The notes beneath the pieces were generated by a model that made no database searches, was not told the DNA's origin, and was given only the letters and a program-made list of their open reading frames with translations. Source: Alphaproteobacteria bacterium (lineage in GTDB: Bacteria > Pseudomonadota > Alphaproteobacteria > UBA828). Taken from it: DNA of 64,000 nucleotides. The position numbers and the translations under genes are program-made. Shown here piece by piece: positions 14,191-24,429 of the stretch; the stretch's first letter is position 1; every line of letters begins with the position of its first letter. Where the stretch lies: positions 2,368,001-2,432,000 of the forward strand of contig OZ243972.1 of NCBI GenBank assembly GCA_965214705.1. Reading direction: 5' to 3'.

Positions 14191-14583
14191 ATGAGCGACA
14201 AGACCGGCGACGTCGACTACTTCCTGAGCCAGAGCGGCCTCGACAGCGAACGCGAGAAGGAGATCGGCCAGCACATCGGCTATCGTTACGATGTGAACCT
14301 GGTGCCCGATTACGAGCGGCTCACGCCCTTCCTCAAGCGCTACATCGAGACCATGGGCTGGACCGACCTGAACTGGCTGGAAGACGTGCACATGGGCTAC
14401 GAGGAAGGCCGGCCGGCGGTGTTCGACCGCAACATCAACGGCTGGGTCACGGTGCCCGAAGACCTGGAACTGCCCGACAATCAGCAGGACCGCGACATGC
14501 TCGCCCGCGAGCTATTGGTGAAGTTCCAGATGTCGCCCCGCCACCCGATGTCCGACCTCAACGGGGCCTATCGGAAGTTTTAG
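14191..14583 (+). CDS. Hypothetical protein (130 aa), last gene of the mgs-like operon; 3' end duplicated downstream
   Basis: GGAG upstream, strong GC3 codon bias, operon position; no family recognised. Confidence 0.8.
   Translation: MSDKTGDVDYFLSQSGLDSEREKEIGQHIGYRYDVNLVPDYERLTPFLKRYIETMGWTDLNWLEDVHMGYEEGRPAVFDRNINGWVTVPEDLELPDNQQDRDMLARELLVKFQMSPRHPMSDLNGAYRKF
14516..14583 (+). repeat. Direct repeat copy 1 (3' end of the 130-aa gene; attL-like)
   Basis: TGGTGAAGTTCCAGATGTCGCCCCGCCACCCGATGTCCGACCTCAACGGGGCCTATCGGAAGTTTTAG; 66/68 identical to 20783-20850. Confidence 0.95.
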
Positions 14584-14586
14584 GTT

Positions 14587-14610
14587 GGCTGGCTCGTTCG
14601 AGCCTTGCCA
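14587..14610. terminator. Short hairpin between convergent genes
   Basis: TGGC-T-GGCTCG-TT-CGAGCC-TT-GCCA directly after the stop at 14583; no clear U-tract. Confidence 0.35.
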
Positions 14611-14653
14611 CTCCCCACTGAAGCGCTCCGGAGTTTGTTGATCGCGGCAAGCG

Positions 14654-15088
14654 TCAGACGATCTCGTATTCCTGGACTGCGCCGCTGCTATAAATGCCAG
14701 CCACGAACGGCGGGGGCGTCTTGGCCGCAAAGCGCGCGATACGTCGCCTTCCCTTCACCAGCAGCTCGGCGATGTCCGGCCCGGTCGCGTTCTTCATCCG
14801 GATTACGATGACCCGTGCCGAATGCCGCCGGATCGCTTGTAGCTCCGCGGCACGATAACGAACGCCCCTGTCCTTGGTGATCGCCACCCAGCCCATTCGT
14901 CCGACGAGCGCGATCCACTCCTCGTCCGGCGCGTCCTGCGGGAGATGGTCGTCATGCACCTCGACCGCCATTCCCTCGGTGCGAAGACGGTCGGCGATGA
15001 TGTGCCTTCCGAGGCTGCGATCGATGAAGAGCGTGCGCTCAGGCTGCGGCTTGGAGCTCGCACCGGATCGCTTCTTCGATTTCCTCAT
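14654..15088 (-). CDS. PIN-like domain toxin (VapC45-like)
   Basis: LFIDRSLG, DEEWI, GWVAITKD motifs; overlaps upstream DUF433 gene. ATG at 15088 chosen; start uncertain. Confidence 0.85.
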   Translation of the reverse strand: MRKSKKRSGASSKPQPERTLFIDRSLGRHIIADRLRTEGMAVEVHDDHLPQDAPDEEWIALVGRMGWVAITKDRGVRYRAAELQAIRRHSARVIVIRMKNATGPDIAELLVKGRRRIARFAAKTPPPFVAGIYSSGAVQEYEIV

Positions 15089-15731
15089 GCCCACGCTCAT
15101 AGTCGTGCGCCAGGTCGCTGATGGCTTCACCTGCCTTGTAGCGTTCGGCGATGAGCTGAGTGGCGAGGCCGGTGCCGGCGATGACAGGCCGCCCGGCGGA
15201 GAGCGTCGGATCGATGACGATCATCGCGGGCGTGTCGTCCATGGCGCTCCGGGTGAACGGATAGAGCTTGATTGGGACACCGGCGGGATCGCGATCGATC
15301 CGGCGGAGCGCCGCGCTGATGATCTCCCGCATGGCTGTCTGGCCCGCCTGGCTGATATTGATCAGTTGCCCGTATTGCTCGGTGAACAGGTCCAGCCCGT
15401 CCGTCTCAAGCTCGCGACTGATCAGCGGATGACGCTTGTCCATCTCCTGACGCGCATTCGCCGCCAAGAATTGGATCGCCCTGCGAATGCTCGGCATCTT
15501 CACTTCGTGCTTGCGCCGAATGGCGGCGAGAACGTGAAGCTCCGTGAGATTGAGGAAGGAGAGCTGCGTCGGTACGTGTGCAGGTATTTCGATCAGCGGC
15601 GCGTACTCGTCGCGGCCCACCGACCAATAGCGAATGGTCGCCGCGGGCACGGCGAGGTAGTGGGCGGCTTCCGAGATCGTGTAAGCGGGAAGTTCTCGGG
15701 GATCGTTGGTCCCCGTGCGCAGTCTGGCCAT
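15039..15731 (-). CDS. HTH-DUF433 antitoxin (VapB45-like)
   Basis: PAYTISEAAHYLAVPAATIRYW HTH, LSFLNLTELHV, C-terminal IVIDP..AGRPVI.GTG...AGE.I.DLA.DY (DUF433). Confidence 0.88.
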   Translation of the reverse strand: MARLRTGTNDPRELPAYTISEAAHYLAVPAATIRYWSVGRDEYAPLIEIPAHVPTQLSFLNLTELHVLAAIRRKHEVKMPSIRRAIQFLAANARQEMDKRHPLISRELETDGLDLFTEQYGQLINISQAGQTAMREIISAALRRIDRDPAGVPIKLYPFTRSAMDDTPAMIVIDPTLSAGRPVIAGTGLATQLIAERYKAGEAISDLAHDYERGHEEIEEAIRCELQAAA

Positions 15732-15760
15732 CGGGCTCTCTCCCGGATGCCATGATGGAA

Positions 15761-15773
15761 TTTTGAGTCAAAA
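15761..15773. promoter_or_regulatory. Palindrome upstream of antitoxin gene, possible autoregulatory operator
   Basis: TTTTGA-G-TCAAAA, 30 bp upstream of the antitoxin start. Confidence 0.4.
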
Positions 15774-15912
15774 GCGCCCATAGCATGAACGCTGTCTGCA
15801 ATCCATGCCGGCTGTAGCCATCGACGCTCCGAATTGGGATCGACGCCGCAGACGGAAACACCAAGGGTCGAACCCGGCCAAGGGTAACTCTTTGCTTCAG
15901 CGGGATAAAAAT

Positions 15913-15968
15913 CTCCTCACTCCGGTCCCTCTCCGCCCGCAGGGGCGGAGAGGGACCGGAGTGAGGAG
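15913..15968. repeat. Perfect 26-bp inverted repeat (REP-like hairpin, possible terminator)
   Basis: CTCCTCACTCCGGTCCCTCTCCGCCC-GCAG-GGGCGGAGAGGGACCGGAGTGAGGAG, about 40 bp downstream of the autotransporter 1 stop. Confidence 0.9.
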
Positions 15969-16009
15969 GGAAGCGTCCGCTCGTTAGAGCGAACGCCAAC
16001 CCTGCGGTG

Positions 16010-18559
16010 TTACCAGCGCAAGGCGCCGCGCAGCATCAGCCCGTGTCCGGGCCTGTTGTCGTTGGCGGCCTCGTACAGGCTGCCCTCGACGCTCACGCTC
16101 GCCGCTGGCGCAAGCTGCCAGCGCGCACCCATGCGCCACCATTGCGCACCTTCGCCCGCGAGCCCGAGCCCCGCATAGGGCGTCACCACGCCCAGGCCGT
16201 GCGGCGCACCGAGACCGTAGCCGACCTCCGTGTGCAGGCGCGCCTGGTTGTCAGGTGACACTCCAGCAGTGACGCCATTCTCCCACAGCTGGTTTACACC
16301 GCTGCCCGTCTGGCCCCACGCCGGCTGCACCACGAGCGCAAGACCCTGGCCCGACCCGCCCGGTGCAAGGCGCACCAGACCGCTTACCCCCGTCTCCTCG
16401 TAGTCGCCGCTGTGGCTGAGCAGGGTCCGGACACGGCCCTCGACGGTCAGCCCCGACGCCTCGTCGGCATAGCGCAAGGCGCCCCCGGCCTCGATGCTGG
16501 TGCCGGTCTCGCCGTCCCCGCCGTCGTTGCGCACGCCGAGCTCAAGCGAGGGCGTGAATGTCGACCCCGAGGCGAGCTTCTGGACGTGCGCCCCTTCCAG
16601 CAGCAGACGCTGCCGGCTGGCACTCAACGACGTGCTCTCAATGCTCCCGGAGCCATCGACATCAGCCGACGTGAAGGCCACCTCGCCCTTGAGGTTCAGC
16701 GTCGTGGTGCCGCCCGCGATCATCTCGTCGCTGGACATCAGCGGCCCGCTCACGCCTGCCGCCACCATCCGCTGCGTCAGGTCGCTCGACTGCGCTCCCG
16801 CCGAGTCATCATCAAGCTCCACCTCGCCCGAGCCAAGGCCGGCCATGGCCCACAGGTTCATGCCACCCGCCATCTGCCAGCCCACGTAGGGGTTGACGCT
16901 GGTCAGAGAGGTCGTGAGCTCGCCTGACGCGTTGGAGGCCGTGTAATCCACCGTCCCTCGCGCCTGCGACACCGCCAGGCCCGCCAGCATGTCGTCACCC
17001 AGCTTTGTATCGATCCCCAGGTTGGCGCTCACCACGCTGCCGTCGTAGTCGACGGACTGCGGGTTGCCGCCGGCGATGTTGCGGTAGTCCCCGCTGCCCC
17101 AGAGCGTCAAGTCTCCGAAGAGGCCACTGCCCCCGTTACCCGCCGCGTTGAGCGTCATGGTGAAGGACGAGCCCGCCAGCAGCCGGCTGAAATCCAACGT
17201 GCCGTTGCCTAGGGCATGTCCGTTGGCCAGCAGGGCATCGGAGAGGGTGGAGGCACCGCCGAAGCCGAAGCTGAACGCTGCGTCCGGCGCAGTGTCTGAG
17301 GTTGCCCGCTCGATGCGGCCCGAGACGGCATCGACCGTGCTCGCGGTCATGGCACGCATCACCTGGGGCAGCACGGCCTCGATGACCGCGTTGCCGCCCT
17401 CGGCAACCACTTCCGGCGCGCTCCCGTAAAAGCCCGACCCGACGATGAGCCCAATTGGCAATGCGCTTCCGTCTGGTCTCCTGACTTCACCGGTGAACTG
17501 GCGGGCGTAGCCCACCTTGGGAATGTCGGCGCTGTCGCTGTCGTCGGTGGGATCGTCGTAATAGTATTCCACGAAGCCGCCTTCCGGGCCGCTTCTCGCC
17601 GCAGCGAGGACCTGCGGCAGAATGAGCTCTCCGGTACGGCCGTCCCGGGCAATCCCTACCAGAGGTTGAAGCTCGAATTTGCCCGGTTCCGTTGCGTGAA
17701 ACAGGACTACGTTGCTGACGGTATCCAGGACGTAGAGGTACACGGAGCCGTGCCGCCAGGGCCCGTTCGGGTCCCGCAGGGCGATCCTGGCTTGCGACGC
17801 AGCGGCCGGATTGCCGCTCTGCTGGTGTGCGAGAATGAATTCCCCCGCCTGCGTGACGAAGGCCTTCAAGGTTGCTCGGTCTACCACGTCCGCGGCGGTA
17901 ATCTCCGGGTCACCGTAATCGATGTCTTCCTGAGCCAGGTGAGACGAGTTGAGATCGAATCCCGCAAGCAGCACGAGCGGGAGTCGAAAACTTGCCGACA
18001 AATACATGACGGCATAGCCGGAGGCGCCTGGGACATTGGGCACATTGAATGGGCCGCCATTCCCGGCTACTGCCGCTCCAAAGGCGGCCTGGGCCGCAAC
18101 GGGGTCGGCCAGGTCGGCCGGGTTGATTCCCAATGCCTGAAGGATCGCTCCATAAATCAAGGGGTCGAGCAGCCGGCCCGACAATGCCATGTCCTTCGCG
18201 TGAACCAATACCCGGCCGTCGGGCGTCAGTTGCACGAGATAGGTGTCACCGGAACGCCAGGGACTCCCTTCCTGCCTGACGAGACATCCAAGATGCGCCA
18301 CGTCCTCCAAACTCGTTACCGATTGGCCGATCTCCCGATTCAGATCTCTCACGGCCAGCGCGAAGTCCCTCAGGCTGGCGCTGCCGTCCTCCACTTGCGG
18401 CGCCGTCACCCGCGGGTGCGCAGGAGGAGTCCCGCCGGCGGGGAGTGGGCAAGCGTCCTGCGCCGAGGCGGGGAGCCCGTTGGAAAAGACGCCGGCCAGC
18501 GCGAACAGGCCAGCCACAAGAATTAGGGAAATCCTGGGTTTCCATGTCGCGGTATTCAT
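16010..18559 (-). CDS. Autotransporter 1 with tandem Cache-like passenger (849 aa)
   Basis: ATG at 18559 after GAGGAG and matching the paralog start; Sec signal peptide; amphipathic beta-strand C-domain ending LMLRGALRW; passenger has sCache_2-like motifs GPWRHGSVYLYVLD, GGFVEYYYDDP, PKVGYA, IVGSGFY. Confidence 0.85.
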   Translation of the reverse strand: MNTATWKPRISLILVAGLFALAGVFSNGLPASAQDACPLPAGGTPPAHPRVTAPQVEDGSASLRDFALAVRDLNREIGQSVTSLEDVAHLGCLVRQEGSPWRSGDTYLVQLTPDGRVLVHAKDMALSGRLLDPLIYGAILQALGINPADLADPVAAQAAFGAAVAGNGGPFNVPNVPGASGYAVMYLSASFRLPLVLLAGFDLNSSHLAQEDIDYGDPEITAADVVDRATLKAFVTQAGEFILAHQQSGNPAAASQARIALRDPNGPWRHGSVYLYVLDTVSNVVLFHATEPGKFELQPLVGIARDGRTGELILPQVLAAARSGPEGGFVEYYYDDPTDDSDSADIPKVGYARQFTGEVRRPDGSALPIGLIVGSGFYGSAPEVVAEGGNAVIEAVLPQVMRAMTASTVDAVSGRIERATSDTAPDAAFSFGFGGASTLSDALLANGHALGNGTLDFSRLLAGSSFTMTLNAAGNGGSGLFGDLTLWGSGDYRNIAGGNPQSVDYDGSVVSANLGIDTKLGDDMLAGLAVSQARGTVDYTASNASGELTTSLTSVNPYVGWQMAGGMNLWAMAGLGSGEVELDDDSAGAQSSDLTQRMVAAGVSGPLMSSDEMIAGGTTTLNLKGEVAFTSADVDGSGSIESTSLSASRQRLLLEGAHVQKLASGSTFTPSLELGVRNDGGDGETGTSIEAGGALRYADEASGLTVEGRVRTLLSHSGDYEETGVSGLVRLAPGGSGQGLALVVQPAWGQTGSGVNQLWENGVTAGVSPDNQARLHTEVGYGLGAPHGLGVVTPYAGLGLAGEGAQWWRMGARWQLAPAASVSVEGSLYEAANDNRPGHGLMLRGALRW

Positions 18560-18686
18560 CGTGATGCGTGTCTCCTCGTGCCGGGAAAGTCGGGCGAGAT
18601 TTGGTCGCAAGTGGCTTTCCAGGTGGTTGAATCTCGCGACGTGTCTCCGCCAAATTCGAGTTGCGAGAGACACGCGTTCGGCTAAA

Positions 18687-20657
18687 CCGAACTTCCCCCA
18701 GAATTTCGCTGATTTTCGGGCATAAGTCTTTGTTTTTGCGGACGTATCGGCCGTTGGTGCGGATGCAAAGTGTACCCATGTAAATGAGGATGGGGCGTTG
18801 ATATTTTGCGGGTCAGGCACTATGATCCGTCCCCATGTATATCGAAAGCGTCCCAAACCGGAACTCACCCCCCGCAATCCTCCTGCGCGAATCATGGCGC
18901 GAAGGCGGAAAAATCAGAAAGCGCACCCTCGCCAACCTCTCCAGGTGGCCCCCGCACCTGGTCGAGGGCCTGCGCATCCTCTTGCGCGGCGGAACCGCTG
19001 TGCCCCGCGGCGAGAAGCGCCGCGAGGACGACGGCTTCGACATCACCCGCTCGCGTCCCTTCGGCCATGTCGCAGCGGTGCTCGGGGCTCTGCGCGGCCT
19101 CGGTCTGGAACGGCTGATCGCGGCCAGGCGCTCGCGGCTGCGCGACCTCGCGGCGGCGATGATCGTCGCCCGCATCGTGGCGCCGCGCTCGAAGCTCGCC
19201 ACCGCACGCGGGCTCAGCGGCGACACCCTGAGCTGCGGCCTCGGCGAGGCCCTCGACCTGGGCGAGGTCGACGAAGACGAACTCTACCAGGCGATGGACT
19301 GGCTGCTTGAGCGCCAGGGCAGGATCGAACGGCGTCTGGCCGAGCGTCACCTCGAGGACGGCGCTCTGGTACTCTACGACGTCACCTCGACATGGCTGGA
19401 GGGGCGCTGCTGCCCGCTGGCGCATCACGGCTACTCCCGCGACGGCAAGCGCGGCAAGCTGCAGATCGTGTTCGGGCTCCTGTGCAACGCGCAGGGCTGC
19501 CCGGTGGCGGTGGAGGTGTTCGAGGGCAACACCGCCGATCCGGCCACCCTGGGCTCCCAGATCGACAAGCTGCGCCGGCGCTTCGGCCTCTCGCGGGTGG
19601 TGCTGGTGGGCGATCGCGGCATGCTCACCGAGGCGCGCATCCGCGAGGAGGTGAAGCCGGCCGGGTTGGAGTGGATCAGCGCGCTGCGGGCGCCGGCGAT
19701 CCGGGAGCTGGCCTCCAGCGGAACGCTGCAGCCCTCGCTCTTCGACGAACGCGACCTGGCCGAGATCCATCATCCCGACTTCCCCGGCGAACGCCTGATC
19801 GCCTGCCGCAACCCGCTGCTCGCCGTCGAGAGGGCGCGCAAGCGCGAGGCCCTGCTCCAGGCCACCGAGGGCGACCTCGACGAGATCCGAGCGGCAACAC
19901 GGCGCGCCAAGCGCCGCCTCGCCGGCAAGGACAAGATCGGCCTGCGCGTGGGCAAGGTCATCGGCAAGCACAAGGTCGCCAAGCACTTCGAGCTGGAGAT
20001 CGCCGATGACGGCTTCACCTGGCAGCGCAACCGGGAGCGGATCGCCGAGGAGGCGGCGCTCGATGGCCTCTACGTCATCCGCACCAGCGTGCCCGAGGGC
20101 GAGCTCGGAGCCGAGGACACGGTGCGCGCCTACAAGGGATTGAGCCGCATCGAGCGCGCCTTCCGCAGCGTCAAGACCGTCGACCTCAAGGTGCGGCCCA
20201 TCCACCACTACCGCCCCGAGCGCGTGCGCGCCCACGTGCTGCTGTGCATGCTCGCCTACCACGTCGAATGGCACATGCGCCAAAGGCTCGCCCCCATCCT
20301 GTTCGACGAGGACGACCCGGCCGCTGCGGACGCCGCGCGCGCTTCCATCGTCTCACCGGCAAAGCCCTCGCCCTCCGCCCGTCGCAAGGCCGCCGGCAAA
20401 CGCACGCCAGACGGGATGCCGGTGCACAGCTTCCGCACGCTCCTCGATGATTTGGCGACCATCGCCAGGAACCGCGTTCAACCGAAACTCGCCGGAGCAC
20501 CGCCCTTCGATCTGGTCACCAAGCCGACGCCGGTACAGCGCCAGGCGCTCGATCTGCTTGGCGTCAGCCTGTAGCGTACCCAGTACGCGACTCCGCGAAA
20601 CGGTGGTTTGGAAAGCCACCGCAACAACTTAGCTCAATATCTGCTGGGGAAGTTCGG
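18687..20657 (+). mobile_element. IS1634-family insertion sequence
   Basis: 12-bp perfect terminal inverted repeats CCGAACTTCCCC (18687-18698) / GGGGAAGTTCGG (20646-20657) flanked by 6-bp direct repeat GCTAAA (18681-18686, 20658-20663); one DDE transposase. Confidence 0.92.
18835..20574 (+). CDS. IS1634-family transposase
   Basis: LLRESWREGGKIRKRTLANLS, LYDVTSTWLEG, GYSRDGK, LVGDRGM, IERAFRSVK, RPIHH motifs; 579 aa intact. Confidence 0.95.
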   Translation: MYIESVPNRNSPPAILLRESWREGGKIRKRTLANLSRWPPHLVEGLRILLRGGTAVPRGEKRREDDGFDITRSRPFGHVAAVLGALRGLGLERLIAARRSRLRDLAAAMIVARIVAPRSKLATARGLSGDTLSCGLGEALDLGEVDEDELYQAMDWLLERQGRIERRLAERHLEDGALVLYDVTSTWLEGRCCPLAHHGYSRDGKRGKLQIVFGLLCNAQGCPVAVEVFEGNTADPATLGSQIDKLRRRFGLSRVVLVGDRGMLTEARIREEVKPAGLEWISALRAPAIRELASSGTLQPSLFDERDLAEIHHPDFPGERLIACRNPLLAVERARKREALLQATEGDLDEIRAATRRAKRRLAGKDKIGLRVGKVIGKHKVAKHFELEIADDGFTWQRNRERIAEEAALDGLYVIRTSVPEGELGAEDTVRAYKGLSRIERAFRSVKTVDLKVRPIHHYRPERVRAHVLLCMLAYHVEWHMRQRLAPILFDEDDPAAADAARASIVSPAKPSPSARRKAAGKRTPDGMPVHSFRTLLDDLATIARNRVQPKLAGAPPFDLVTKPTPVQRQALDLLGVSL

Positions 20658-20782
20658 GCTAAAGAGGCAGGATGTGCCGCAAAAGTTATATATATGCTAA
20701 TTTGTAATATATATTCCCGAGCAGCGCTAGCGGAAGCTTCAGACCCTCTCTCGGATTTTCTGCGGGCTGGGGCACGAGATTC

Positions 20783-20850
20783 TGGTGAAGTTCCAGATGT
20801 CGCCCCGTCACCCGATGTCCGACCTCAACGGGGCGTATCGGAAGTTTTAG
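20783..20850 (+). repeat. Direct repeat copy 2 (junction between units 1 and 2)
   Basis: 66/68 identical to copy 1; both differences synonymous in the 130-aa gene frame (CGC/CGT, GCC/GCG); keeps the TAG stop. Confidence 0.95.
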
Positions 20851-20873
20851 ACCGGGTATACCGCGACGGCCGC

Positions 20874-20899
20874 AACCCGCGCCCGGTGTGACGCGGGTT
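20874..20899. terminator. Hairpin downstream of autotransporter 2
   Basis: AACCCGCG-N10-CGCGGGTT, 14 bp from the stop at 20914. Confidence 0.45.
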
Positions 20900-20913
20900 A
20901 CGACCCTGCGGCG

Positions 20914-23520
20914 TTACCAGCGCAAGGCGCCGCGCAGCATCAGCCCGTGCCCGTGCCCGTCATCGTTGGCGGCCTCGTACAGACTGCCCTCGACGCTCAC
21001 GCTCGCCGCTGGCGCAAGCTGCCAGCGTGCGCCCATGCGCCACCACTGCGCACCTTCGCCCGCAAGCCCGAGCCCCGCATAGGGCGTCACCACGCCCATG
21101 CCGGGCGCCACGCCGAGACCGTAGCCGACCTCCGTGTTCAGGCGCGCCTGCTTGTCCGGTGACACTCCGGCAGTGACGCCATTCTCCCACAACTGGTTTA
21201 CACCGCTGCCCGTCTGGCCCCACGCCGGCTGCACCACGAGCGCGAGACCCTGGCCAGACCCGCCCGGTGCGATCCGCACCAGACCGCTCACGCCTGTCTC
21301 CTCGTAGTCGCCGCTATGGCTGAGCAGGGTCCGGACCCGGCCCTCGACGGTCAGCCCCGACGCCTCGTCGGCATAGCGCAAGGCGCCCCCGGCCTCGATG
21401 CTGGTGCCGGTCTCGCCGTCCCCGCCGTCGTTGCGCACGCCGAGTTCAAGCGAGGGCGTGAATGTCGACCCCGAGGCCAGCTTCTGGACGTGCGCCCCTT
21501 CCAGCAGCAGACGCTGCCGGCTGGCGCTCAAGGACGTGCTCTCAATGCTCCCGGAGCCATCGACATCGGCCGATGTGAAGGCCACTTCGCCCTTGAGGTT
21601 CAGCGTCGTGGTGCCGCCCGCGATCATCTCGTCGCTGGACATCAGCGGCCCGCTCACACCTGCCGCCACCATCCGCTGCGTCAGGTCGCTCGACTGCGCT
21701 CCCGCCGACCCATCGTCGATCTCAACCTCGCCCGAGCCGTAACCGGCGATGGCCCACAGGTTCATGCCACCCGCCATCTGCCAGCCCACGTAGGGGTTGA
21801 CGCTGGTCAGAGAGGTCGTGAGCTCGCCTGACGCGTTGGAGGCCGTGTAATCCACCGTCCCTCGCGCCTGCGACACCGCCAGGCCCGCCAGCATGTCGTC
21901 ACCCAGCTTTGTATCGATCCCCAGGTTGGCGCTCACCACGCTGCCGTCGTAGTCGACGGACTGCGGGTTGCCGCCGGCGATGCTGCGGTAGTCCCCGCTG
22001 CCCCAAAACGTCAAGTCTCCGAAGAGGCCACTGCCCCCGTTGCCCGCCGCGTTGAGCGTCATGGTGAAGGACGAGCCCGCCAGCAGCCGGCTGAAATCCA
22101 ACGTGCCGTTGCCCAGCGCATGTCCGTTGGCCAGCAGGGCATCGGAGAGGGTGGAGGCACCGCCGAAGCTGAACGCTGCGTCCGGCGCAGTGTCTGAGGT
22201 TGCCCGCTCGATGCGGCCCGAGACGGCATCGACCGTGCTCGCGGTCATGGCCCGCATCACCTGGGGCAGAACCGACTCGATGACCGCGTTGCCGCCCTCG
22301 GCAACCGCCTCGGGAGCAGTCCCGTAGAAGCCCGAGCCTACGATGAAGTCAACGTCTCGGATTACGCTTCCGCCCGGCCCCAATATTTGGCCGGAGAACT
22401 CGCGGGCGTAGCCCACTTTGGGGATGTCGGCTCTGTCGCTGTCGTCAGCGGGATCGTCCCAGAAATACTCCACGAAGTCGCCTTCCGAGCTGCGTCTCGC
22501 CGCAGCGAGGACTTGCGGCAGAACGAGCTCTCCGGTTACGGCATCTCGGACGGTCGGCACCAGTGGCCGATTCTCGAATCTGTTCGGGAACGCTGCGTGA
22601 AACGTGATGATGTTGCTGTTGAGGTCCAAGACGTAGAGATACACGGAACCGTGCCGCCAGGGCCCGTTCGGATCGCGCAAGGCGATCCTGACTTTCGCGG
22701 CAGCGGCTGGATCGCCAGTTCTCAGGATCTCAAGAAAGTAATTTCCCGCTGCCGAGACGAAGGCCTTCAGGGTTTCGCGGTCCACCACGTCCCTGGCGGT
22801 AACGGTCGGATTTTCGTGAACGATTGCTTCATCAATCAAGTGAGATGCGTTGATATCGAATCCCGCAAGCAGCACGATTGGAGACCCCAATTCCGGTGAA
22901 TTATAGACGGCGGCGTAGCCGGAAGCGCCGGGTATGCCTGGACTCACGCCCGGAATAGGGGTGGTCGCATCGAACGGAGCATCCGGTTCTTGCGACAATG
23001 TGGCAACGAAGGCTTGGTAAGCGCGTCCGGCGACAGCAGGATCAGAAGACGCCAAGTTAACCAAATCGGCTTGGGAGACACCCAACGCAGTAAGAATCTG
23101 CCCGTAAATCAGCGGGTTGAGCAGCCGGCCCGACAACGACATGTCCTTTGCGTGAACGAACACACGACCGTCGAGCGTCAGGGTCACAATGTAGGTATTG
23201 CCGGAACGCCAGATCCCATCGTCCTGCCTGATTGCGCATCCGATATAGAGCCCCTCTTCGACGGCCGTGGCCTGTTGGGAATGTTCTCTGGACCGCTCTC
23301 TCACGGCGAGCGCAAAGTCCACCAAAGCAGCGCTGCCGTTTGTTACCTGTTGCGCCGTCACAGTCGGGTCCGCAGGAGCAGTCACGCCGGCAGGGAGTGG
23401 ACAAGGAGGTTCCTGCGTCTGCGCCGAGGCGGGGAGCCCGTTGGATAAGACGCCGGCCAGCGCGAACAGGCCAGCCACGAGAGTTAAGGAAATCCTGGTT
23501 TTCCATGTCTCGGTGCTCAT
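20914..23520 (-). CDS. Autotransporter 2 with tandem Cache-like passenger (868 aa), paralog of 16010-18559
   Basis: Same signal peptide, same Cache-like motifs (GDFVEYFWDDP, PKVGYA, IVGSGFY), near-identical C-terminal beta domain ending GALRW. Confidence 0.88.
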   Translation of the reverse strand: MSTETWKTRISLTLVAGLFALAGVLSNGLPASAQTQEPPCPLPAGVTAPADPTVTAQQVTNGSAALVDFALAVRERSREHSQQATAVEEGLYIGCAIRQDDGIWRSGNTYIVTLTLDGRVFVHAKDMSLSGRLLNPLIYGQILTALGVSQADLVNLASSDPAVAGRAYQAFVATLSQEPDAPFDATTPIPGVSPGIPGASGYAAVYNSPELGSPIVLLAGFDINASHLIDEAIVHENPTVTARDVVDRETLKAFVSAAGNYFLEILRTGDPAAAAKVRIALRDPNGPWRHGSVYLYVLDLNSNIITFHAAFPNRFENRPLVPTVRDAVTGELVLPQVLAAARRSSEGDFVEYFWDDPADDSDRADIPKVGYAREFSGQILGPGGSVIRDVDFIVGSGFYGTAPEAVAEGGNAVIESVLPQVMRAMTASTVDAVSGRIERATSDTAPDAAFSFGGASTLSDALLANGHALGNGTLDFSRLLAGSSFTMTLNAAGNGGSGLFGDLTFWGSGDYRSIAGGNPQSVDYDGSVVSANLGIDTKLGDDMLAGLAVSQARGTVDYTASNASGELTTSLTSVNPYVGWQMAGGMNLWAIAGYGSGEVEIDDGSAGAQSSDLTQRMVAAGVSGPLMSSDEMIAGGTTTLNLKGEVAFTSADVDGSGSIESTSLSASRQRLLLEGAHVQKLASGSTFTPSLELGVRNDGGDGETGTSIEAGGALRYADEASGLTVEGRVRTLLSHSGDYEETGVSGLVRIAPGGSGQGLALVVQPAWGQTGSGVNQLWENGVTAGVSPDKQARLNTEVGYGLGVAPGMGVVTPYAGLGLAGEGAQWWRMGARWQLAPAASVSVEGSLYEAANDDGHGHGLMLRGALRW

Positions 23521-23768
23521 TGCGAGGGCTCCTGCTGGGGAAAGGCGGGAAACCTAAAGTCGAAAACGACTCAATGAGGAGCCGAGTCGTACGGCGTGTT
23601 CTTGCCGAAATCAAGTTTTCTAAATCACGATTTCGACAAAAAGGGCGTAGTTTGCATCAATAATAGTATGTAAGCCTGCTGAAACTGCATGTGAAAGTGA
23701 TAACGTGCGCCCCTCGGCAAAACCCGCGCGGGTTTTGGAACCTCACACGGTCCTTCTGCGGGTTTGAA

Positions 23769-23846
23769 CGCGAGCTTCCGGCGGTGCTCCAGATGTCGCC
23801 CCGCCACCCGATTGCCGACCTCAACGGGGCGTAAATGGAGATTTCC
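23769..23846 (+). repeat. Direct repeat copy 3, degenerate (attR-like, probably oldest)
   Basis: Core 23788-23833 matches copies 1 and 2 at 43/46; colinear without gaps from CGCGAGCT (23769 vs 14506); premature TAA in the gene frame. Confidence 0.88.
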
Positions 23847-23850
23847 GTCG

Positions 23851-24429
23851 TTACCGAGCCCCGTCCGGATCGGGATTGGCGGTTGCCTCCAGCCAACGGG
23901 GCGCGAAGACCAAGACCGGGATGTCGGGCGGCAACTGCGAGTTGAACAGCGCGTTGTGCCACCAGGTCTCCTCGCGACGCGGGTCGTCGCGCCCGAGCCT
24001 CTGGACGGTGCAGGGCAGCGAGTAGCGCTGGCTGTCCTGGGCGAAGGCCAAGACACAGCGCCCCTCACGCTCCAGGTCGGCGGCAAGCGGTGAAGCGGCC
24101 GCGAACGTCGCCGTCAACAGGTCGCTAAAATCGCGCGCATATTGGTAGTAGCGCTCGGCCAGCAGGGCCAGTGCTGCGTCGCGCCGGTCGCGCGGGTCGT
24201 GGGTGCGCCGCGCCAGGTGGCGGAACTCGGGCGCGAAGGACTCCGCCTCCCGCCGAACCAGCAGCGTGGTCATTGCCGGCGCGAGCTCTTCGCCTGCCGC
24301 GCTCAGCACCTGTGGCCGCATCCCCGGCGACGGCTGACCGGCGCGGCGGCGCATGGCGTCCGCACGTATGCGGCACTGCCAGCCGACGAAGTGATCGCGC
24401 AGGCGCTCGGCCCGCGGCGCGGCACTCAC
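23851..24429 (-). CDS. Conserved-looking hypothetical protein (possible split-barrel fold)
   Basis: 192 aa, GAGGGG upstream of GTG, motifs F.GWQCRIR and WHNALFN; function not recognised. Confidence 0.7.
   Translation of the reverse strand: MSAAPRAERLRDHFVGWQCRIRADAMRRRAGQPSPGMRPQVLSAAGEELAPAMTTLLVRREAESFAPEFRHLARRTHDPRDRRDAALALLAERYYQYARDFSDLLTATFAAASPLAADLEREGRCVLAFAQDSQRYSLPCTVQRLGRDDPRREETWWHNALFNSQLPPDIPVLVFAPRWLEATANPDPDGAR

Follow-up and report, generated by a model that had tools for sequence, protein, structure and literature searches.

The tandem array lying between a conserved 130-aa gene and its convergent 192-aa neighbour is best understood as a variant of insertion with long target duplication rather than as a cassette system based on att sites. 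Capture of the gene end through such an insertion, followed by expansion and contraction by homologous recombination, is the best explanation and, in our judgement, a probable one. In this regard, ordinary recombination between the repeats seems to underlie the gain, loss and exchange of surface-protein variants among related marine bacteria, and its likely effect would be variation of a predicted surface-exposed small-molecule-binding protein.

In the window (the whole stretch of 64,000 nucleotides analysed), the insertion target is the 130-aa gene (14191..14583, plus strand), of unassigned family and without match in Pfam or NCBIfam, which closes a GmaS/MgsABC-like methylamine module with GS, GATase, GXGXG and Glu_synthase genes upstream (Pfam) and is present in 27 of 41 related genomes. 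The conserved 192-aa gene (23851..24429, minus strand), also of unassigned family, is its direct convergent neighbour at empty sites. The first-pass annotation had described three copies of the last 68 bp of the 130-aa gene, and sequence comparison reproduced the 66/68 match between copy 1 (14516-14583) and copy 2 (20783-20850), with both changes synonymous (14541 and 14568; CGC/CGT and GCC/GCG) and the stop codon retained in copy 2, as well as the 43/46 core identity of the decayed copy 3. The homology is longer than this core and extends back to ~14499 (~85 bp in total). By alignment, copy 1 (14499..14583, plus strand) is the functional gene end and copy 2 (20766..20850, plus strand) is a hybrid that joins an arm-linked left part to a gene end of the type found in the sister genome G017. 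Copy 3 (23769..23846, plus strand) is an old, decayed gene end displaced to the right, as proposed, which keeps the empty-site junction with the 192-aa gene and abuts its stop with a gap of 4 bp. A BLASTN search of the 68-mer against the 7.9-Mb genome gave these three copies alone among the matches listed, the extra copies at E values of 2e-26 and 7e-14 and the next match at 0.002. All 12 extra copies in 21 genus genomes sit at this locus, which ruled out a dispersed element. An ncRNA or promoter role was discarded because Rfam gave no match, a sigma-70-like site is absent and the copy is missing from the left unit of G017.

Two autotransporters (ATs) occupy the array, both on the minus strand (PF03797) as first noted: AT1 (16010..18559), with 849 aa comprising a signal peptide, two Cache-like domains and a beta-barrel, and the chimeric AT2 (20914..23520; 868 aa). 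Their start-to-copy distances calculated from the coordinates are alike, about 246 bp for AT1 once the insertion sequence is subtracted and about 258 bp for AT2. The insertion sequence reported in unit 1 belongs to the IS1634 family (18687..20657, plus strand; NF033559 above cut-off) and lies in the AT1 upstream region, showing the family transposase, terminal inverted repeats and a short target duplication of 6 bp (18681-18686 and 20658-20663); three further full copies exist in the genome, and it is missing from the relatives' alleles of the site. Mobility genes other than that of IS1634 were not found in the locus, in agreement with the integrase-less array originally described. A type II toxin-antitoxin (TA) pair, composed of a PIN-domain toxin (14654..15103, start codon approximate, minus strand; PF18478) and an HTH/DUF433 antitoxin (15039..15731, minus strand; PF04255, PF21321), had been counted as cargo of unit 1, a view that does not hold since a TA pair resides at the same intergenic site without any repeat or AT in G013, G018 and G019. 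The TA pair and IS1634 are independent residents of the site.

Copies 2 and 3, and not the 130-aa gene, share a 25-bp upstream arm (20742..20766 and, for unit 2, 23738..23762, both plus strand), which forms the distal end of the AT upstream region. A whole-genome search found the arm at this locus only, which ruled out an IS end or a MITE. Extra copies are carried by 9 of the 21 genus genomes, each adjoining the 192-aa gene or falling between ATs, and the arm keeps one register, that is, one left junction, in 14 of 14 aligned copies (the 12 from the genus plus two metagenome loci). Empty alleles with the 130-aa gene beside the 192-aa gene, which had been predicted, were found in G002, G011 and G015, and empty, one-unit and two-unit alleles coexist among the 21 genomes, revealing the site as a variable array. 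The proposed outward ageing was also observed, with internal copies matching their own gene at 63-67 of 72 positions versus 51-59 of 72 for terminal ones. A 300-bp spacer in G004 was ruled out as a decayed copy because its similarity did not rise above shuffles (p 0.34-0.78), and the joins 14584-20868 and 14596-20874 in run X7 were ruled out as excisions because different letters lie between them, pointing to other alleles. Neither circles nor exact excision joints turned up in the contigs of runs X1, X3, X5 and X7, a kind of data that would not reveal them.

A single shared left junction could fit a conserved attP equally well. The units might be decayed integrative elements (CIME-like) or cassettes that are moved in trans by a recombinase of the tyrosine or serine type, with the arm and the gene end as attP/attR. 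Such site-specific accretion, which we consider unlikely, agrees with the constant junction and conserved arm, and its 3′-end restoration and tandem geometry resemble CIME accretion as presented in the available part of PMC5704250. Moreover, the genome is rich in recombinases (at least 150 tyrosine-recombinase and 11 resolvase matches as possible actors in trans), one AT paralogue of G018 lies ~2.7 kb from two integrases, and a crossover window at another gene of this genome (SDR) spans 8 bp, as an integrase overlap would. However, ~33 bp of SDR gene homology stand to the left of that window, an integrase is absent from every examined allele, and the arm runs on into the AT upstream region, being missing at the other AT loci (by eye) and from the rest of the genome. 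The internal copy is also only 22 nt long in G008 and has gone in G017. Among 80 genome-collection loci with the 130-aa gene, mostly from other genera, a duplicate end was seen in a single one (L117), with another junction, another cargo and no integrase. A cognate integrase-bearing element with the same att was not found in a sample of 21 genus genomes and 85 further loci, and six target genes with repeats of 62-237 bp would each need their own lost integrase. Of the earlier reading, the empty sites, variable unit number, displaced end, ageing and RecA are supported, whereas the att site and the integrase acting in trans are not, given that all copies derive from one junction. Nor is the special cassette hotspot supported, since TA pairs and ATs occupy the site without a repeat, ATs occur at 7 other loci and the scar is present at five other genes. 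As a caution, a duplicated 3′ gene end alone does not make an att site.

Homologous recombination after a gene-end capture finds support in mosaics. Copy 2 unites arm-type left alleles with the gene end and spacer of G017: one crossover could be mapped, to a central window of 26 bp in the repeat (matching 14542-14567), and the spacer after copy 2 is 25/25 identical to that found 3′ of the gene in G017. As for AT2, most of its barrel windows are 94-97% identical to the left AT of G017, versus 80-86% to the right one in the first half, and it is the right AT that its N-terminal windows match, at 96% identity; judged by these windows, AT2 is a chimera with a barrel like the left and an N-terminus like the right AT of G017. 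Barrels cluster by genome, and monophyly of one genome's passengers was rejected in 3 of 3 tests (p-AU 4e-7 or lower). According to the favoured explanation, a Cache-domain AT with its upstream region would have entered once at the 130-aa/192-aa junction, in an ancestor of part of the genus, when DNA that carried the cargo together with the gene's final ~85 bp underwent recombination with the gene end; the gene would have stayed whole, leaving the old end adjoining the 192-aa gene and making a dedicated recombinase unnecessary. Homologous recombination would then have used two kinds of repeats: crossovers in the 1.4-kb barrels may cause unit loss and passenger shuffling, and exchange of a terminal copy with a gene end in the DNA of a related strain, by unequal crossover or through a popped-out circle, would add units and leave a fresh hybrid copy between them. 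Unit 2 may be what remains of a two-gene allele like that of G017 after its collapse to a single chimeric AT; to this array a unit with TA and AT like that of G006 was presumably added afterwards, the IS insertion being later still. RecA acting across the repeats, already proposed, would be the best mechanism, although for RecA a homology of 85 bp at 80-97% identity is on the short side. The genome encodes recA, comEC and dprA, the last two being also present in 10 of 14 control genomes and therefore no sign of competence, and a search for a gene transfer agent as vehicle gave one phage-tail match, in a prophage-like block.

Some of these data would also be expected from an old tandem duplication of the AT unit in place, inherited vertically and with internal copies rejuvenated by gene conversion from the gene end, without accretion between strains. 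Left-position passengers of G001, G008, G009 and G017 form a position-linked clade, suggesting that the two-gene array of those genomes is old and inherited; barrels are homogenised within genomes, indicating that conversion acts at the locus, and the terminal copy of G017 has a refreshed 3′ end. On the other hand, the AT1 passenger of this genome falls outside the left-type clade, conversion of the 68-mer alone would not yield the post-gene spacer of G017 behind copy 2, and empty and single-unit alleles are interspersed among the same genomes as arrays. Vertical duplication as the sole history is thus improbable. Poor resolution of the species trees leaves the order of events in the favoured explanation unproven. 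Far less credible is an assembly artefact joining two strain alleles in tandem across the repeats. A contamination estimate of 8.72%, one TA contig at half the AT depth in run X3 and a copy 2 unbridged by any contig piece shown would speak for it, but passenger depths are similar (12.9 and 9.4 in X1, 50.2 and 55.3 in X3), the shared barrel has roughly their summed depth (19.8 and 111.2, respectively), and the two-AT arrays of G008, G009 and G017 each lie on one contig.

Insertion with long target duplication was described for restriction-modification genes by Furuta, Abe and Kobayashi in 2010 (PMC2853133). According to the available part of that paper, inserts are under 20 kb, direct repeats exceed 30 bp and vary in length, relatives keep an empty site and an integrase is absent; repeats often cover a start or stop codon while the gene stays intact, the majority of cases come from competent species, and units amplify via the repeats. 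Breakage of DNA by the restriction-modification genes is suggested there, and experimental evidence for release and re-infection is not reported in that part. Likewise, 9.3 kb separate copies 1 and 3 here, with repeats of ~85 bp at this site and other lengths in other events, a single-copy empty site in relatives and nothing among the genes found, integrase or otherwise, that would account for mobility of the insert. The restriction-modification cargo used to select the published cases is replaced at this site by AT and TA and, more widely, by autotransporter, ParE-type TA, binding proteins and others, which extends this type of insertion past restriction-modification cargo. Chimeric repeats moreover add comparative evidence, at the sequence level, that units enter from relatives and stack by homologous recombination. 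The CIMEs of PMC5704250, in the portion available, likewise consist of integrase-less units arrayed in tandem at the 3′ end of a gene, their internal sites being hybrid, and differ in that neither a parent ICE or IME nor an integrase remnant is found here and unrelated genes bear the same scar. In the available text on the Staphylococcus aureus lpl cluster (PMC2568036), tandem surface-protein paralogues likewise recombine at a conserved region and their parts give incongruent trees; in the present array the barrel takes the part of the conserved region, and expansion would be driven in addition by a second repeat outside the paralogues, the end of the neighbouring gene. In transformation-triggered unequal crossover (PMC3784515, as far as its available part describes it), incoming DNA pairs with an alternative short repeat to give a tandem duplication, as may happen here, but the demonstration was in pneumococcus, with IS-derived repeats and duplications of 100-900 kb.

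The same scar, ending at the stop codon and followed by unrelated cargo, was found at five other genes in a scan of this one genome, with repeats of 62, 83, ~85, 146, 185 and 237 bp when this site is included. The scan gave 10 downstream-direct matches, 3 of them discarded (an 898-bp paralogue remnant, a 91-bp local repeat and a 305-bp tail in a mobile island), and no integrase match was obtained across 36 loci. At the SDR gene, all 5 differences between gene and copy are synonymous and form a reciprocal chimera relative to the empty-site relative G006; as read from these positions, this scar records a crossover that was reciprocal and fell within the repeat. Only SDR and copy 2 gave a clear result in the chimera test, with pyc, CMD and LysR giving no informative signal, and at CMD G003 differs in both cargo and junction (129 vs 185 bp). 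A tentative idea, to which we would give somewhat less than an even chance, is that this genus has a routine integrase-free route in which small circles, whatever their cargo, carry the final 60-240 bp of a related species' housekeeping gene, integrate by one crossover, pop out and re-enter other strains. If true, such a route would supply without restriction enzymes the release-and-reinfection step missing from the long-target-duplication model, and at this site it would cycle the alleles of a secreted ligand-binding module with two Cache domains, ~70% identical across unrelated phyla.

The ATs follow the type Va pattern, with a hydrophobic N-terminus, a passenger, a C-terminal barrel (PF03797 above cut-off) and a terminal Trp, read from the sequence. 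The passenger, which shares ~70% identity with proteins assigned by their labels to other phyla, is likely a double Cache-domain module and a predicted surface-exposed small-molecule-binding protein. A PDB sequence search with its profile gave 0 matches, and the top Foldseek matches of its model were sCache_2 chemoreceptor ligand-binding domains (2QHK/4EXO, 5G4Y and 4K08; E 7e-5 to 3e-4). Those matches are periplasmic sensors, whereas here two such domains, at 21-24% identity, constitute an autotransporter passenger; a literature search for Cache autotransporters in sponge symbionts found nothing. The cargo would be an uncharacterised exported module, common to several phyla and subject to rapid allele shuffling, and a candidate host- or metabolite-interaction factor. 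Long duplications flank 1 of 7 close dispersed AT paralogues (in G002, where 224 bp from the 5′ end of a porin are repeated) and 0 of 2 distant ones, and none surrounds the AT that G020 carries at this site without a repeat. In runs labelled sponge or coral the share of words was only 0.23-0.29, with one RNA run at 0.07, and these runs do not establish a habitat. A 26-bp perfect hairpin (15913..15968, minus strand) is terminator-like for AT1, and REP-like relatives of this hairpin occur elsewhere in the genome.

The gene-end repeat array of the window is genuine. As the first-pass annotation had read, the 3′-terminal 68 bp of the 130-aa gene (14191..14583, + strand) recur at 20783-20850 with 66/68 matches, both changes being synonymous, and a decayed third copy lies at 23769-23846 (core 43/46). 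The check it proposed, of the 68-mer against the whole 7.9-Mb genome, returned only these three gene-end copies, which do not form a dispersed repeat. Homology between the copies extends to ~85 bp, beyond the 68-bp core, and copies 2 and 3 are preceded by a 25-bp arm that is unique to them in the genome. Between the copies there are a PIN/DUF433 toxin-antitoxin (TA) pair, two autotransporters (AT1, 16010..18559, and AT2, 20914..23520, both on the - strand) and an IS1634 element bounded by a separate 6-bp duplication. The target is the final gene of a module that is presumably GmaS/MgsABC-like. In two sequencing runs available as contigs (X1 and X3), depth was alike for both passengers and about twice that for the shared barrel, which fits a true two-gene array, none of the contig pieces shown spanning copy 2; the window may derive from the samples of these runs. 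In X3, depth over one contig with the TA pair (14654-15731) is roughly 50% of that over the autotransporters, which hints at a mixture of strains that have and lack the pair. IS1634 (18687-20657) lies 127 bp upstream of the AT1 start and may silence or drive this gene, and a sigma-70-like site (18798-18826) is directed into its transposase.

The 130-aa gene is present in 19 of the 20 other genomes of the genus. The empty allele anticipated for the locus does exist: the gene directly abuts the convergent 192-aa gene (23851..24429, - strand) in G002, G011 and G015, and both genes are also close together in several other genera. The expected variation in cargo and unit number was likewise borne out, with empty, TA-only, one-autotransporter and two-autotransporter alleles among relatives. 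In G004 there is a 300-bp spacer; the TA pair occurs in G013, G018 and G019, where autotransporter and gene-end copy are both absent; G020 has an autotransporter without a copy; a single autotransporter and a terminal copy are present in G005, G006 and two metagenome loci (L067 and L070); in G012 the arm and copy remain but the autotransporter is missing; G008, G009 and G017 hold two autotransporters, each on a single contig, and G001 probably two, spread over two contigs. Extra gene-end copies occur in 9/21 genomes (12 in total), every one at this locus. The arm register is identical in all 14 aligned copies, which therefore descend from one junction. Compared with the gene of the same genome, internal copies agree at 63-67 of 72 positions (two genomes having both types) and terminal copies at 51-59/72; only 22 nt of the internal copy are left in G008 and none in G017. 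In G001 (L053:17-4041) an autotransporter adjoins what is left of the 192-aa gene, a decayed 3′ half, after which comes the TA pair; this arrangement suggests a further one-sided recombination at the locus. G018 has an ERG4/ERG24 sterol-reductase-family gene directly after the 130-aa gene (L043:18181-19335), and an ORF judged by eye to resemble it seems to lie at the same place in L069. The left autotransporter of G017 is broken near codon 90 by ~4.5 kb including an IS1595-family transposase (L031:12500-16900).

The history of the window's allele was read from its mosaics, species trees being weak. Copy 2 (20766..20850) is a hybrid, arm-type on its left and equal to the gene end of G017 on its right, with the switch point mapped to 14542-14567; the spacer that follows it is identical to the one after the G017 gene (25/25), and after the window's 130-aa gene come a spacer (21/25) and the TA pair, both G006-like. 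AT1 and AT2 share 446/463 barrel residues but only 106/180 and 109/169 in their two Cache domains, and barrels cluster by genome whereas passengers do not. AT2 itself is a chimera, combining the barrel of the left G017 autotransporter with the N-terminus of the right one, as expected from deletion between barrels. From this chimera and the hybrid copy 2 we infer that the array lost units by way of the barrels and gained them by way of the gene-end repeat. In four other genomes passenger clades are linked to position, suggesting that their two-gene state is old.

The sequences directly show the repeats and their hybrid forms, empty sites, variation in copy number and mosaic autotransporters, and no local integrase was found. 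The locus probably arose by an initial insertion with long target duplication, followed by putative RecA-type crossovers with DNA of related strains; recA, comEC and dprA are in the genome, yet are common in control genomes too. An integrase acting in trans could instead move the units, a reading we consider improbable; the genome is rich in recombinases. Neither Pfam searches of 66, 49 and 44 selected ORFs nor tblastn with four integrases on 36 loci found an integrase at the 130-aa site or at the other tested scarred genes. Among known classes, insertion with long target duplication (PMC2853133) comes nearest, and repeats across stop codons and amplification through repeats were already noted for it; in the accessible part of that paper the cargo is restriction-modification only, whereas here it is autotransporters and a TA pair. 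As far as the available portions of the sources go, accretion of CIMEs, integrase-less elements at gene ends, has a like geometry (PMC5704250) but differs in that no cognate element was found for the window array, and the lpl cluster resembles the shuffling of the autotransporter array (PMC2568036).

The duplicated-gene-end scar is general, extending beyond the 130-aa gene. Scanning 5409 heuristically called genes, with 4324 low-copy ends, for 3′-end copies ≤20 kb downstream yielded 10 non-coding direct copies, compared with five upstream (longer paralogue remnants), two inverted downstream and one for mid-gene segments. Three of the 10 were dropped, leaving seven matches at six genes, two of them at the 130-aa gene. 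The others were a CMD gene (185-bp repeat; binding protein and GntR), an SDR gene (62 bp; serine hydrolase and IS), pyruvate carboxylase (pyc, 83 bp; ParE-type TA), a LysR gene (237 bp; DUF4143 ATPase and others) and a 196-aa gene (146 bp; one gene). At the six genes repeats end -2 to +10 nt from the stop, with extension permitted to +60. Relatives with an empty site are G006 for SDR (98% after the copy) and G012, G007 and G004 for pyc, and the CMD gene of G003 bears an independent insert differing in junction and cargo. All five differences between the SDR gene and its copy are synonymous; the gene is G006-like on the left and G001-like on the right, and the copy the reverse, the signature of one crossover inside the repeat with a relative's allele. 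The same comparison at three other scarred loci gave no informative pattern. Outside the scanned genome, a Cache autotransporter paralogue of G002 (L056:6390-9600) lies between two copies of a 224-bp stretch with a porin promoter and 5′ end, the only such case among seven close paralogues, and L117 has a separate duplication of the 130-aa gene end around a 2-kb insert; both fit a general scar. Besides the 130-aa locus, the five integrase-free islets with a duplicated 3′ end stopping at the stop codon are L152, L154, L155, L156 and G000:C3:178191-180100, G000 being the genome under study.

Regarding the cargo, the passenger model (mean pLDDT 85) comprises two Cache-like domains whose top structural matches are sCache_2 chemoreceptor domains. 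Of 8000 candidates scored in a search, 1237 were relatives; the top matches (68-73% identity) include proteins with the labels Gemmatimonadota, Paracoccaceae, Deltaproteobacteria and Rhodospirillales, in which barrels, FlgD-Ig/T9SS-type tails or LRRs are joined on. Given ~70% identity to proteins with labels of several phyla (P0001-P0120), the double-Cache passenger is possibly a horizontally shared secreted module with predicted ligand binding; it is sometimes repeated several times. No Cache autotransporter of sponge symbionts was found in the literature searched, mostly without subscription papers.

Elsewhere in the genome under study there are at least 150 tyrosine-recombinase matches, including ~90 frames of 360 aa that are near-identical and 11 frames of 293 aa with identical scores, which represent a predicted very high-copy mobile element encoding a recombinase. 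L153:675-7240 holds three tandem P4-type integrase genes, one broken by IS66, beside a DruA-domain transposase, and L157:6396-13497 encodes large BON/pilus-domain proteins of 192-bp-period repeats, with dispersed fragments nearby.
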